The notes: generated by a model not told the origin, from the letters alone. DNA of 64,000 nucleotides from Escherichia coli (GCF_051903065.1 NZ_CP178438.1), one strand, 5' to 3'. Shown: positions 12,136-45,979, counted from the first letter of the stretch. A program made the numbers and translations.

Positions 12136-12498
12136 GGGGCTGATTCTGGATTCGACGGGATTTGCGAAACCCAAGGTGCATGCCGAGGGGCGGTTGGCCT
12201 CGTAAAAAGCCGCAAAAAATAGTCGCAAACGACGAAAACTACGCTTTAGCAGCTTAATAACCTGCTTAGAGCCCTCTCTCCCTAGCCTCCGCTCTTAGGA
12301 CGGGGATCAAGAGAGGTCAAACCCAAAAGAGATCGCGTGGAAGCCCTGCCTGGGGTTGAAGCGTTAAAACTTAATCAGGCTAGTTTGTTAGTGGCGTGTC
12401 CGTCCGCAGCTGGCAAGCGAATGTAAAGACTGACTAAGCATGTAGTACCGAGGATGTAGGAATTTCGGACGCGGGTTCAACTCCCGCCAGCTCCACCA
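12136..12498 (+). ncRNA. ssrA: tmRNA (SsrA), intact 363 nt
   Basis: Starts GGGGCTGATTCTGGATTCGACGGG, contains the tag-peptide reading frame region and ends ...GGTTCAACTCCCGCCAGCTCCACCA. Confidence 0.95.
12454..12498. repeat. Prophage attachment-site repeat, ssrA-proximal copy (45 bp)
   Basis: ATGTAGGAATTTCGGACGCGGGTTCAACTCCCGCCAGCTCCACCA is repeated exactly at 45935-45979. Confidence 0.9.
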
Positions 12499-12621
12499 AA
12501 TAAATCAAGGGGTTACGTGAAAGCGTAGCCCCTTTTTCTTTGGTAGTGGCGGCAAAATGGCGACAGACTTTTGCGTCCATCTTGCCTGTCGCCATCTTGA
12601 AATCATGCAAAGAGGTTTCAC

Positions 12622-13104
12622 ATGGAAGAACTTCACTTTGTTTACATCAATGCAAATGGTCGTATCGGTGTTCACTCAATACAGAGCATCAGTTATAGCG
12701 AAAATCATATACAGGGCATTTGTAAGAACACCGATCGAATAAAAACCTTCCGAAAAGACCGCATTCTTAAACAGTACGATTCACCAGAACAAGCCATTCA
12801 GGAATGCGCGTCATTCCTCCCCGAAAACTACTCACATCTCACTAAGCAGTCTGGTCCGAAAAAAAATACATTCGATGTGTGCTTCACCGGATTTAAGAAA
12901 GCAGATAAAGAAAGATTGGTTGATAAGGCGAATGAACAAGGATTAACGGTAAGAACCTCTGTAACCCAAAGCCTTCAGATGCTCTGTTGCGGTTACAATG
13001 CAGGCCCATCAAAAGTATCGGCAGCCAGGATGAAAGGCACAATCATCATAGATGAGCCTGGCTTTATACATTTTCTTGAAACGGGTGAGATCCCAGATGA
13101 ATAA
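12622..13104 (+). CDS. Prophage cargo protein with WYL-like N-terminal segment and BRCT-like C-terminal segment
   Basis: 160-aa ORF between ssrA and ogr; N-terminal ...KTFRKDRI resembles the WYL-domain signature; C-terminal VCFTGF...GTIIIDEPGFIHFL resembles BRCT; by-eye assignments only. Confidence 0.55.
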   Translation: MEELHFVYINANGRIGVHSIQSISYSENHIQGICKNTDRIKTFRKDRILKQYDSPEQAIQECASFLPENYSHLTKQSGPKKNTFDVCFTGFKKADKERLVDKANEQGLTVRTSVTQSLQMLCCGYNAGPSKVSAARMKGTIIIDEPGFIHFLETGEIPDE

Positions 13105-13130
13105 AAACCTGCCGTAGCAGGTTCTCTTTC

Positions 13131-13349
13131 TCAAAAATTCATATGCCCCTGACCACCTGGCAATGGATGTGGAGGGGCTGTAGCAATCAATGCAGGTGTC
13201 ACAATAAACCGGACCACTGTTTCATGGGTAACAAAAGTGCTCCCGCAGTTAATATTTTGGCACTGGCAGTAACGCTCTTTGGTGCTTTCTGTTACTTGAA
13301 AACTGCTCCTTGTGTGCGCCGCATGACCACACTTCGGACAATTCATCAT
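13131..13349 (-). CDS. ogr: Ogr/Delta-type zinc-finger late-gene activator
   Basis: CPKCGH...CQCQNINC four-Cys finger; start set at the internal Met of the listed 87-aa ORF; adjacent to gene D. Confidence 0.8.
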   Translation of the reverse strand: MMNCPKCGHAAHTRSSFQVTESTKERYCQCQNINCGSTFVTHETVVRFIVTPALIATAPPHPLPGGQGHMNF

Positions 13350-13417
13350 ATCCAGATCCCTACCTTTGCTATCAGAATCATTGTAATGATACACAAAATA
13401 TCAATATTGAGAACACT

Positions 13418-42927: not shown

Positions 42928-43941
42928 ATGACCATCAGAAAACAGCCGAACGGAAAATGGTTGTGTGAGTGCTATCCCAATGGACGCAATGGCAAGCGCG
43001 TGCGTAAGCAATTTGCTACGAAAGGCGAAGCCATTGCGTTTGAAAGCTTCACAATGGAAGAAGTGAATAAAAAACCGTGGTTGGGTGAAAAGGATGATCG
43101 GCGACGCCTATCAGAATTAATTGAGCTTTGGTATTCCCTGTATGGTCAAACACTCGCAGACCCCAAGCGCCTCATGGCGAAACTTAGAATTATCTGTAAT
43201 GGTCTAGGCGATCCCATCGCCTCAGAACTGACAGCTGGTGACTTTACAAAATACCGCGAAGCACGGTTAAAAGGTGAAATACGAAATGAAGATGGCACGC
43301 TTATGTCGCCCGTTAAGCCCCGCACGGTAAACCTTGAACAGCGCAATCTATCATCTGTGTTCGGTACATTAAAAAAACTAGGACACTGGTCAGCACCAAA
43401 CCCGCTGGCAGGACTTCCGACCTTCAAAATTGCCGAAGGTGAGCTGGCTTTTCTTTCCACAGACGAAATCAAGCGCCTGTTGGCGGCATGTGCTGAATCT
43501 CAAAACCCTAGCTTACTAATGATTGCAAAAATATGCCTAGCTACTGGCGCACGGTGGAGTGAAGCCGAAAATCTGCAGGGCCACCAAATATCGAAATACC
43601 GAATTACTTATACAAAAACAAAAGGCAAGAAAAACAGAACAGTACCCATATCACAGGAGCTGTATGACGAACTCCCAAAGAACAGAGGGAAGTTATTCTC
43701 ACCATGTAGAAAAGCCTTTGAACGAGCAGTAAAACGGGCAGGTATAGATCTACCGGATGGCCAATGCACCCACGTGCTGCGACATACGTTTGCTAGTCAC
43801 TTTATGATGAATGGCGGGAACATACTTGTGCTAAGGGATATTTTGGGACATTCGGATATCAAGATGACCATGGTTTACTCACATTTCTCACCAGATCATC
43901 TTGAAGATGCCGTTACTAAGAACCCATTAAACTTGATATAA
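42928..43941 (+). CDS. Tyrosine integrase
   Basis: 337-aa ORF with C-terminal catalytic motifs (HVLRHTFASH...LGHSDIKMTMVYSH). Confidence 0.92.
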   Translation: MTIRKQPNGKWLCECYPNGRNGKRVRKQFATKGEAIAFESFTMEEVNKKPWLGEKDDRRRLSELIELWYSLYGQTLADPKRLMAKLRIICNGLGDPIASELTAGDFTKYREARLKGEIRNEDGTLMSPVKPRTVNLEQRNLSSVFGTLKKLGHWSAPNPLAGLPTFKIAEGELAFLSTDEIKRLLAACAESQNPSLLMIAKICLATGARWSEAENLQGHQISKYRITYTKTKGKKNRTVPISQELYDELPKNRGKLFSPCRKAFERAVKRAGIDLPDGQCTHVLRHTFASHFMMNGGNILVLRDILGHSDIKMTMVYSHFSPDHLEDAVTKNPLNLI

Positions 43942-43954
43942 AACAGCCAAAATT

Positions 43955-45712
43955 CTATTTCATCAAGTAATCCAATTCATCCTTCATAGGTATAACTTGC
44001 TCATAAAGTCTATGGTAGGATTTTCCAATTGCGCCCCTAAATTGAATAAGTTTAGGGGAAAAGCTACCGATATTAATAATATGTTCTTGCGCTATACCAG
44101 GATATGGATCGATAAAAATAATCTCTGTCATACCTAACTGATAAGCTTTTTTAGCACAAAGTTCACAAGGGCTAGCTGTAGTATATAGTTTCCCTCCATT
44201 AATACCGACCCCACCATATTTGGCCAATTGCAAAAAAGCATTCTCCTCTGCGTGTAATGCACGGGTATGCACTTGATTCCCTTTCTTTTCATCATCAAGG
44301 CTGTTGTGAATATCTTTAAAACAATATGGCAAATTAAGTCCTTTAAAAACAGTAGAACTTGAATCACTCGCCCTTATTTTTATTAAATTTTCTTTAACTT
44401 TACTCCTAAATTTTGTATTACTTCGTTCGTACAGGCTATATGTTCCCTCATCAAAATCATGCAATAACCCATCAAATGACCTCATAGAACAAGGAACTTG
44501 ACCTTTTGCTACATCGTTCCAACCAACTGACTTGATAGAGTTATCATTATCTGTCACAACCGCCCCTACTTGCCTAGATATACATCCAGAATTTAGTTTT
44601 ACAGTATATGCAACTTGCATAACCCTTTCCATGGCGGTAGGAGATATTAATCCAGGGTGTTGCATTAATGATACATACCACGCAATTTGTGCTTTGAGAA
44701 AATTATTATTATCAAATTCTTTTTTAGGGTTAAAAAAATGTATATCTGAAATTTCAATGCATTTTTTTACATTAGGATTAGTAAGATGATTATACTCGCC
44801 ATCTCCTTTACCAGATTCTTCATCATTAATTTTCTTTATCTGTTCCTCTGAGAACTTATGTAATTTCTTTAAATATCTGGTTCGATGTTCATCTGGTGCA
44901 TTTATAGAAACCAGATGGAATGCAGCATATCTATCTTTGAAGAATTTAGCTTCATACGGGTTACGTATCGCATCAATGACTATATACGCTTTATTATTCT
45001 TTACTTTTCTAATTATTTTAATAACACGATTAATTGTTTCAGGTAAATGAAAAACAGCCTTTGGAATAAAGTCTTGATTTTCATAATCTACATCAACCTT
45101 CCCTATTCTTCTAATTGACTTTCCTGCTGACTGATATAGCTCAATATATAAACCTGGCTCTAGTTCATTTAATTCCCTTTTAAAATCCCGTGTAAATTTT
45201 CGAGTAAGAGTTAATATCCTAATAAAGGTATCTTTCCCCCTGCCTTTAAAGTCAATCTCATCATCATGATTAAGAAGATTTTTTATCACCTCAAGATATT
45301 TTATCTTCAACAAACTTTTAGCGAACACACCATTAACAACCAGTTTCTTGGCTACCTTAAAGGAAATCGAATTTTCTTTTTTATCGGGGATTTTACTTGC
45401 AGAAAACTGAATGAATTTAGCTAAGGCCGATGGAGATAAAAGGAGCAAATATATTGAAATGAGATCACTGACCTTTATCGAATAGAAGTTCTTCCAATGA
45501 GTCTCTGCAAAATTTTTTACTATTTCATAACGCCGCAAATCCAATCCTTTATAATACTCAGCCAAGACGTTACTATCTGGAAAAGATATTTCTTTTTGTT
45601 CTAAAATATTTGCTGCAGTAGTACATCCTGAGCCAGTTCTCCCAGTTAAACCAATAAGAATAAATTGACTATTTTCTAAAAAAAGCTCACTAATAAATTT
45701 GTGTTCTCTCAT
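43955..45712 (-). CDS. Kinase-like / cytidine-dCMP-type zinc deaminase fusion protein (candidate nucleotide-depletion defence gene)
   Basis: 585-aa AT-rich ORF; C-terminal HAEENA...SPCELCAKK zinc-deaminase signature; N-terminal glycine-rich P-loop-like GLTGRTGSGCTT; between int and the distal att repeat. Confidence 0.75.
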   Translation of the reverse strand: MREHKFISELFLENSQFILIGLTGRTGSGCTTAANILEQKEISFPDSNVLAEYYKGLDLRRYEIVKNFAETHWKNFYSIKVSDLISIYLLLLSPSALAKFIQFSASKIPDKKENSISFKVAKKLVVNGVFAKSLLKIKYLEVIKNLLNHDDEIDFKGRGKDTFIRILTLTRKFTRDFKRELNELEPGLYIELYQSAGKSIRRIGKVDVDYENQDFIPKAVFHLPETINRVIKIIRKVKNNKAYIVIDAIRNPYEAKFFKDRYAAFHLVSINAPDEHRTRYLKKLHKFSEEQIKKINDEESGKGDGEYNHLTNPNVKKCIEISDIHFFNPKKEFDNNNFLKAQIAWYVSLMQHPGLISPTAMERVMQVAYTVKLNSGCISRQVGAVVTDNDNSIKSVGWNDVAKGQVPCSMRSFDGLLHDFDEGTYSLYERSNTKFRSKVKENLIKIRASDSSSTVFKGLNLPYCFKDIHNSLDDEKKGNQVHTRALHAEENAFLQLAKYGGVGINGGKLYTTASPCELCAKKAYQLGMTEIIFIDPYPGIAQEHIINIGSFSPKLIQFRGAIGKSYHRLYEQVIPMKDELDYLMK

Positions 45713-45934
45713 TTCGCACCTGTTACGTTATAACACAAGTCTCTTCCATGTTGTATTTATTAGTATTTATTAAAAAACAAGAAATTGCAACATAGCGGTA
45801 ACAATACACACACCAAGAAAATGGCGGCAACTTGGCGGCAGAGCTTTAAAAACGTATAAAACGGATAAACACAAAACAATACCAACCAACTGTTTTTGAA
45901 AACAAATTATTGTTTTCATTATAATATAAATGGT

Positions 45935-45979
45935 ATGTAGGAATTTCGGACGCGGGTTCAACTCCCGCCAGCTCCACCA
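45935..45979. repeat. Prophage attachment-site repeat, distal copy (partial ssrA 3' end)
   Basis: Exact 45-bp copy of 12454-12498. Confidence 0.9.

Follow-up and report, generated by a model that had tools for sequence, protein, structure and literature searches.

The 64,000 nucleotides (nt) of Escherichia coli DNA analysed here (NZ_CP178438.1, assembly GCF_051903065.1; the window) contain an insertion directly downstream of ssrA, the gene for transfer-messenger RNA (tmRNA). The locus raises the questions of which element has used this site, where it begins and ends, whether it is whole and what it carries. Prophages of this kind in ssrA have been known since 2003. The interval is very probably a single, complete P2-family temperate phage (Peduoviridae, Fels-2/Cartapus lineage), 33,481 bp in length, integrated into the tmRNA 3′ end by its tyrosine integrase. 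It is another case of a well-known kind, ordinary and apparently intact. Among its cargo is a gene pair that is RexAB-like in architecture and is not a member of the RexA and RexB sequence families.

Determination of the ends of the insertion began from the tmRNA gene. A single such gene is present in the window, on the plus strand at 12136–12498 (ARAGORN, tag ANDENYALAA). It matches Rfam RF00023 over the full length of the model (positions 1–374 of 374, 295.8 bits), and the sequence is 99.6% identical to K-12 through position 12500. The 3′ end of the gene is repeated on the far side of the insertion. The first-pass annotation had described a perfect 45-bp direct repeat; its exactness and its location were confirmed, while its length is 46 nt. 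The attL core (12454–12499, plus strand) comprises the T-arm and acceptor 3′ strand of ssrA and includes the last 45 nt of the gene. The attR core (45935–45980, plus strand) is the copy of the ssrA 3′ end that has been displaced; beyond it come chromosomal DNA and ypjA. The start-to-start distance is 33,481 bp. These are the only two copies of the core in the window when up to three mismatches are allowed, and none was found in 100 shuffles.

An attP site was rebuilt by joining the phage side of attR (45713–45980) to the phage side of attL (12500–12640). The rebuilt site is colinear with the attP of Escherichia phage Cartapus, with 91% identity over 301 nt, unbroken through the core. When the ends of the Fels-2 record are joined, the same 46-nt core appears, with the same stem-loop terminator after it and the same TGGCGRCA repeats flanking it; the core itself is identical in the window, Cartapus attP and Fels-2 attP. 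In the window the terminator, a 12-pair stem followed by a T run, was located by a terminator scan at 12507–12534 on the plus strand. It is supplied by the phage, also occurs 3′ of the core in both attP sites, and now serves ssrA. Candidate arm-type integrase sites were read from the sequence on both sides: repeated TGGCGRCA motifs at 12545–12597 (P′ arm), with the motif recurring on the opposite att arm, and TGGCGGCA repeats at 45820–45841 (P arm). Both are conserved in Cartapus and Fels-2.

The chromosomal side is consistent with this picture. The DNA 3′ of attR is identical to the K-12 sequence beyond the right end of CP4-57. In silico removal of the insert produces an ssrA–ypjA junction, which is uninterrupted in 1386 of 5426 complete E. 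coli genomes and is matched by the rebuilt empty site with 100% identity in two of them. The attL arrangement, with ssrA fused to a BRCT-like open reading frame (ORF) and ogr, occurs in 169 of the 5426 genomes (approximately 3%). The repeat therefore bounds the prophage as first annotated, since the rebuilt attP matches those of Cartapus and Fels-2 and the empty site exists in E. coli genomes. At the level of sequence, the ends are exact and the insertion is clean. We propose that an attP bearing a 46-nt copy of the ssrA 3′ end and its own terminator would recombine with ssrA through the tyrosine integrase. Because attP carries both, recombination would leave a sequence-identical, intact ssrA at attL, now running into phage DNA, and the original 3′ end would be displaced to attR beside ypjA. 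The ssrA gene at attL is thus a hybrid: its last 45 nt lie inside the core shared with attP, which is unchanged by the crossover, and its terminator is phage DNA.

The identity of the element was assessed by megablast against deposited phages. The late region displays 96% identity over 83–89% of its length, its matches being an E. coli record, Cartapus (Elveevirus, Peduoviridae) and Klebsiella P2-like phages. The early region is 92–95% identical to relatives, among them Salmonella phage RE2010. Cartapus (NC_070909) is the closest named annotated phage relative and has the same attP, cos, BRCT-like ORF and invertase. Every annotated Cartapus gene was translated and used in a tblastn search of the window. 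All 40 shared core proteins were matched, mostly at 93–100% identity and at full length, except for S (146 of 150 residues) and H, which matches over its first 355 residues only and diverges thereafter. No stops or frameshifts were found in the stretches aligned to these 40 proteins. The matches include portal, both terminase subunits, scaffold, capsid and head completion proteins; holin, endolysin and spanin; tail completion, baseplate, sheath, tube, E/E′, tape measure, U and D proteins; and Ogr, A, Dam, CII, Apl/Cox, CI and Int for regulation, replication and integration. The earlier claim of a complete P2-type gene set between the repeats is thereby supported. The assignment to the P2/186 family likewise stands, given the Cartapus-like nucleotide identity, the 40 core matches, the 186-type CI repressor and the Cox/Apl-like and CII-like homologues. 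Nothing was found that speaks against the identification as a prophage.

The late genes follow the P2 order (Q, P, then O, N, M, L, X, lysis, R, S, V, W, J, I, H, FI, FII, E/E′, T, U, D and ogr), with Pfam support from Ogr_Delta and Phage_tail_fib. The ogr/delta-type late-gene activator (13134–13349, minus strand; Pfam Ogr_Delta, 1.5e-20) shares 98.6% identity with Cartapus Ogr. The tail genes D, U, T (tape measure), E/E′, FII (tube) and FI (sheath) occupy 13421–20255 on the minus strand, with full-length tblastn matches to Cartapus of 88.6–100%. The genes for H, baseplate proteins I, J, W and V, tail completion proteins S and R, lysis proteins LysB, K and Y, protein X and head proteins L, M, N and O are found at 22226–31541, also on the minus strand (85–100% to Cartapus, Pfam Phage_tail_fib in H). 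The terminase large subunit P and portal Q are encoded on the plus strand at 31684–34475 and are 99.8% and 93.8% identical to their Cartapus counterparts. The cos region for packaging and cohesive ends (36270–36419) is 90.7% identical to Cartapus over 150 nt, continuous across the joined Cartapus termini; the Cartapus record places its cos at positions 1–59. The early operon (37087–42174, minus strand) encodes A, Dam methylase, a DksA-type zinc finger, DUF2732, DUF5347, Fil, CII and Apl/Cox, all 95–100% identical to Cartapus (Pfam MethyltransfD12 and DUF5347). The replication endonuclease A has 804 amino acids (aa) and shares 98.3% identity with Cartapus gpA.

The lineage is that of Fels-2 and Cartapus within the Peduoviridae, and not P2 or 186 proper. 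With both P2 and 186 the prophage shares the P2-type order of late genes, a gpA replication endonuclease, an activator of the ogr type and cos. Its CI, CII and Apl are of the 186 type, as is its presumed LexA-controlled induction logic. P2 is known to integrate at sites other than ssrA; it uses a C/Cox switch and is not known to be SOS-inducible. Phage 186 integrates at the ileY or ileX tRNA genes (PMC3448106). The integration of Fels-2 and SopEPhi into ssrA is well established, being cited in PMC3448106 and listed in a table of PMC10107115. With Fels-2 (Felsduovirus) and SopEPhi the prophage has in common the 46-nt attP core, the terminator and the arm motifs. It also shares with Fels-2 the gene order ssrA-ogr-D...CI-int-attR, the 186-type switch, a Dam methylase, a DinI-like gene and a Cin/Gin-type invertase. 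Unlike Fels-2, it resides in an E. coli host, has the extra BRCT-like ORF between attL and ogr, carries a dCTP deaminase gene between int and attR, where Fels-2 has nothing, and has other cargo at the portal–A hotspot. Cartapus differs from the prophage in the tip of its tail fibre and in the fibre assembly genes, possesses one more ORF, located between S and V, and carries DUF4145 and RES-domain genes as cargo where the prophage has the RexA-like pair and the dCTP deaminase.

The integrase gene is located at 42928–43941 on the plus strand (Pfam Int_N and Phage_integrase), and its product is of the Fels-2 type, with 304 of 335 residues (91%) identical to Fels-2 Int and 95% identity to Cartapus Int. 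It lies at the attR end, approximately 31 kb from the intact ssrA, in agreement with the first-pass annotation. The Fels-2 record has the same order, att-ogr-D...CI-int-att, and its ogr end is the one that, from LT2 gene numbering, we take to adjoin ssrA; the distal integrase is thus the rule for the lineage and no oddity. In the proposed mechanism, int would read towards attP from the side that becomes the attR end, so that integration would leave the integrase far from the intact ssrA. The occupant of this site in K-12, CP4-57 (2755941–2777971), is indeed unrelated, as had been claimed. Its insertion point in the chromosome is the same, between ssrA and ypjA, and it also duplicates the ssrA 3′ end, but it contains no P2 structural genes and its content is unrelated. 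CP4-57 intA adjoins the intact ssrA; at the right end all that is left of ssrA is a short, degenerate remnant, and ypjA comes next. IntA and the prophage Int align only in a local stretch of 27% identity.

The RexA-like pair is located between portal and cos and has a guanine-plus-cytosine (GC) content of 33–42%. The interval from GpA to portal is the main cargo hotspot of P2 phages (PMC9122126). The first gene (35199–36188, minus strand) encodes a soluble protein of 329 aa with a predicted RexA/RdgC-like fold, a candidate sensor. The second (34510–35202, minus strand) encodes a membrane protein of 230 aa, a candidate RexB-like effector. A hydropathy scan of the latter revealed four hydrophobic segments and a charged C-terminal helix, and its AlphaFold2 (AF2) model is all-helical with a predicted local distance difference test (pLDDT) score of 77. 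The stop and start codons of the two genes overlap, so that they are translationally coupled, and a bidirectional terminator follows at 34487–34509. The 329-aa protein has no match in Pfam, NCBIfam or PADLOC and only an unknown-function match in PHROG; the 230-aa protein has none in any of the four.

Within E. coli the pair is rare. It is present in only two of the 5426 complete genomes, and in the one examined it belongs to another P2-like prophage, integrated at a different site; its combination with the dCTP deaminase gene was found in none of the 5426. Another P2-like prophage of E. coli keeps both genes together at the hotspot between GpA and portal. The family of the 329-aa protein is larger: 18 clusters were obtained by a word-seeded search and 489 clusters at 50% identity by an exhaustive profile search. 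A tblastn search of deposited phages returned distant homologues with 21–24% identity (E 1e-8 to 1e-18). In the lambdoid phage Perceval the homologue directly follows the cI/repressor gene, and in Acinetobacter phage phi1_092021 it follows the repressor with one small ORF between; in both it is followed by a membrane protein of 167–168 aa. The phi1_092021 homologue was labelled "DefenseFinder protein" by its depositors; the names of the distant relatives are all "hypothetical protein". Relatives of approximately 20% identity in metagenomic phage contigs are likewise paired with a partner gene. The membrane partner stands beside the 329-aa-family gene at every locus examined. Its hydrophobic segments number three or four in all cases, and its C-terminus bears the shared motif E..R(Q/K).LID.L. 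In Shigella phage SfIV (2405–4324) a distant homologue, gp49, is located between the lysis genes and the Q antiterminator, and its 108-aa partner, gp48, is apparently truncated by an adjacent transposase insertion. The pair was further found immediately following the primase gene of a P4-like satellite in Aeromonas. This small satellite-type element of Aeromonas hydrophila (CP053859, 1–8661) has Ogr/Delta, GPO_N and P2-capsid-like genes and a P4-type primase, and the RexA-like pair is its terminal cargo beside host rpoD and dnaG. No earlier description of the pair was found in literature searched by accession numbers and for RexAB with P2-like phages.

The likeness to RexAB is one of fold and context. 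In its model the 329-aa protein is predicted to adopt the RexA two-domain fold, which is related to RdgC. The adjacent small membrane partner has four hydrophobic segments, as does RexB. In lambda, rexA and rexB lie in the immunity region, where they follow the repressor gene cI and are co-transcribed with it; the homologues in Perceval and phi1_092021 have this position after the repressor gene. The pair of the prophage, in contrast, is found at the P2 portal–cos hotspot and not beside the repressor. It is also larger (329 and 230 aa, versus 279 for lambda RexA and 144 for RexB), and its membrane partner has a long charged C-terminal helix that lambda RexB lacks.

Several results weigh against a Rex-like reading. 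The Pfam models for RexA (PF15969) and RexB (PF15968) and the PADLOC models RexA and RexB miss both proteins and 136 family members; the proteins of lambda itself, used as a control, score 1e-97 and 8.5e-92 with the Rex models. Comparison by hhalign with lambda RexA and with a RexA family alignment gave probabilities of 0.2–0.5%, the value for the 26-member family alignment being 0.5%. An hmmsearch of all PDB sequences with profiles built from 17 and 136 sequences returned no match. The AF2 model of the 329-aa protein is of medium confidence (pLDDT 65.5, with the middle third below 50), and a Foldseek search against viral models did not list lambda RexA. For the partner, a Foldseek search against BFVD gave no match better than E 0.02 and an hhalign comparison with RexB gave nothing; because these comparisons are uninformative, only the number of hydrophobic segments was used. 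Membership in the RexA and RexB sequence families was rejected on the basis of the negative hidden Markov model, profile–profile and PDB searches. If the two are related, all detectable sequence similarity to RexA and RexB would have been lost, so that the Pfam, NCBIfam and PADLOC models do not recognise the pair. A "RexAB-type" system has been described in Pseudomonas putida (PMC12894663). Its protein PP_5643 (RexABpp) is unlikely to belong to the 329-aa family: HHpred ties PP_5643 to RexA at 98%, and the profile of the 329-aa family does not.

The alternative is that the pair is a moron of some other type, for instance a regulator with a membrane protein that is holin-like or serves superinfection exclusion or lysogenic conversion; the resemblance to RexA would then be a modelling artefact. 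The missing sequence similarity and the medium confidence of the AF2 model are what this alternative would lead one to expect. A further point in its favour comes from machine-learning scores cited in bioRxiv 10.64898/2026.02.27.708500, which flag only 15–32% of the unknown P2 hotspot proteins as antiviral. We nevertheless consider a function outside defence unlikely and the pair a likely defence system. A Rex-like mechanism, suggested by the fold, the partner and the gene position, is put forward tentatively. Under it, the pair would act as an abortive-infection system in which a DNA-binding, dimeric RexA-fold sensor activates the four-segment membrane partner, and the activated effector would collapse the membrane potential. 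With its 489 clusters, the RexA fold, the four-segment partner and the slot after cI in lambdoid phages, the pair may, somewhat speculatively, represent a widespread and unrecognised RexAB-like branch of abortive-infection systems that moves among lambdoid immunity regions, the main P2 hotspot and P4-like satellites.

Three stretches of the prophage are not shared with Fels-2; in two of them Cartapus differs as well. Besides the pair, the second of these cargo positions is the interval between int and attR, a minor defence hotspot of P2 phages that holds 3% of P2 systems (bioRxiv 10.64898/2026.02.27.708500). It is filled by a gene at 43955–45712 (minus strand, GC content 33–34%), the product of which is, judged by sequence, an anti-phage dCTP deaminase. 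The protein scores 420.5 bits with NCBIfam NF041025 (cut-off 400), matches PADLOC dCTPase at 2e-146 and contains Pfam dCMP_cyt_deam_1 (4.8e-15). The arrangement int–deaminase–attR–ypjA occurs in six of the 5426 complete genomes, with the same RefSeq name in those six; Cartapus fills this slot with its RES-domain gene. The third stretch is the accessory ORF of 160 aa at 12622–13104 (plus strand), placed between the phage-supplied ssrA terminator and ogr. It matches phrog_2561 (2.2e-77, annotated "DNA ligase"), and its C-terminal half is BRCT-like, with a weak Pfam BRCT match and similarity to the C-termini of PADLOC PDC-S48 (1.8e-7), SspE and LigA. This ORF is absent from Fels-2 and shares 98.8% identity with Cartapus gp32.

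The divergence of H is located in an invertible tail-fibre segment (21020–22581; Pfam Collar and Caudo_TAP). The segment is bounded by 27-nt cix/gix-like inverted repeats at 21020–21046 and 22555–22581, which contain TTCTCCCAAACC and adjoin the gene for a Cin/Gin-type serine DNA invertase (20401–20964, minus strand; Pfam Resolvase, 2.9e-53, and HTH_7). The invertase is 99.5% identical to that of Cartapus. Within the segment are an alternative fibre C-terminus (20992–21468, plus strand), a tail-fibre assembly gene (21468–22073, plus strand) and the current fibre tip (22226–22552, minus strand), which is fused to H. The segment thus holds two alternative tips and a single assembly gene.

The lysogeny switch is of the 186 type. 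The CI repressor is encoded at 42294–42926 on the plus strand (Pfam Phage_CI_repr and Phage_CI_C). Since it is only 52% identical to Cartapus CI, the immunity type probably differs from that of Cartapus. CII and Apl share 95–100% identity with the Cartapus proteins annotated as such. A candidate SOS-induction (Tum-type) module is located at 36502–36991 on the minus strand and consists of a LexA box (36974–36991), a small ORF (36746–36931) and a DinI-like gene (36502–36732; Pfam DinI, 1.3e-22), with matches to Cartapus gp44 and gp45. The LexA consensus TACTGT-N8-ACAG occurs at only two places in the window, this box and the recN promoter (8292–8311), which served as an internal positive control. 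By analogy with 186 and Fels-2, an SOS-induced antirepressor control is assumed. As the CI, Apl/Cox and CII switch, the LexA-boxed small ORF with the DinI-like gene, cos and all head, tail and lysis genes are kept, the prophage can probably be induced by the SOS response, and its excision would run through Int and Apl.

Many E. coli prophages are defective, and this one could be a cryptic, decaying remnant like CP4-57, fixed in place and unable to excise or to make particles. The tail-fibre segment, with its one assembly gene for two alternative tips, would fit such decay; in the present orientation H has a variable tip of 108 aa with no assembly gene of its own downstream, which bears on infectivity in that orientation. 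The remainder of the evidence points the other way. Both att cores are perfect, and cos, int, apl and the LexA box are present. All 40 core proteins shared with a deposited, cos-ended phage were matched without stops or frameshifts in the aligned stretches, and the size of 33,481 bp agrees with that of Cartapus (33,368 bp) and Fels-2 (33,693 bp). A remnant is therefore improbable. That two ssrA-using elements, for example a satellite and a phage, have been merged into one tandem or composite array is scarcely credible and was rejected: ssrA is a hotspot for several integrase types (PMC10107115) and the low-GC blocks at 34.5–36.2 kb and 44–45.9 kb might suggest foreign modules, but there are only two att copies, a single tyrosine integrase was identified among the ORFs of the interval, the entire interval is colinear with single phage genomes, and the blocks are the two cargo positions at which Cartapus has other genes (DUF4145 and RES).

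Beyond the prophage, ypjA matches K-12 only up to position 49470. It is followed by an IS5-family transposase gene (49527–50495), an ORF for an IS1 transposase fragment (50778–51281) and an unassigned ORF of 347 aa (51425–52468), after which come glaH/csiD, lhgO, gabD, gabT, gabP and csiR. Between 49470 and 52500 nothing matched the K-12 segment that follows ypjA (pinH, ypjB), nor were ypjC, ileY and ygaQ, which in K-12 lie before csiD, identified there. As these genes were not found, the K-12 stretch between ypjA and csiD appears to have been replaced or deleted in the window.

The phage at ssrA is a clean example of how an integrating phage can restore a host RNA gene and supply its terminator. 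Together with CP4-57, it illustrates the use of one chromosomal hotspot by unrelated integrases with different orientation rules, and its cargo is a clean example of the exchange of defence genes at P2 cargo hotspots. The prophage as such adds little, and the cargo pair, the sole feature above routine, is where the practical value lies. If a defence function of the pair is confirmed, a much larger family, dissimilar in sequence, would be added to Rex-type exclusion, and the pair would provide comparative material for work on the RexA–RexB mechanism.

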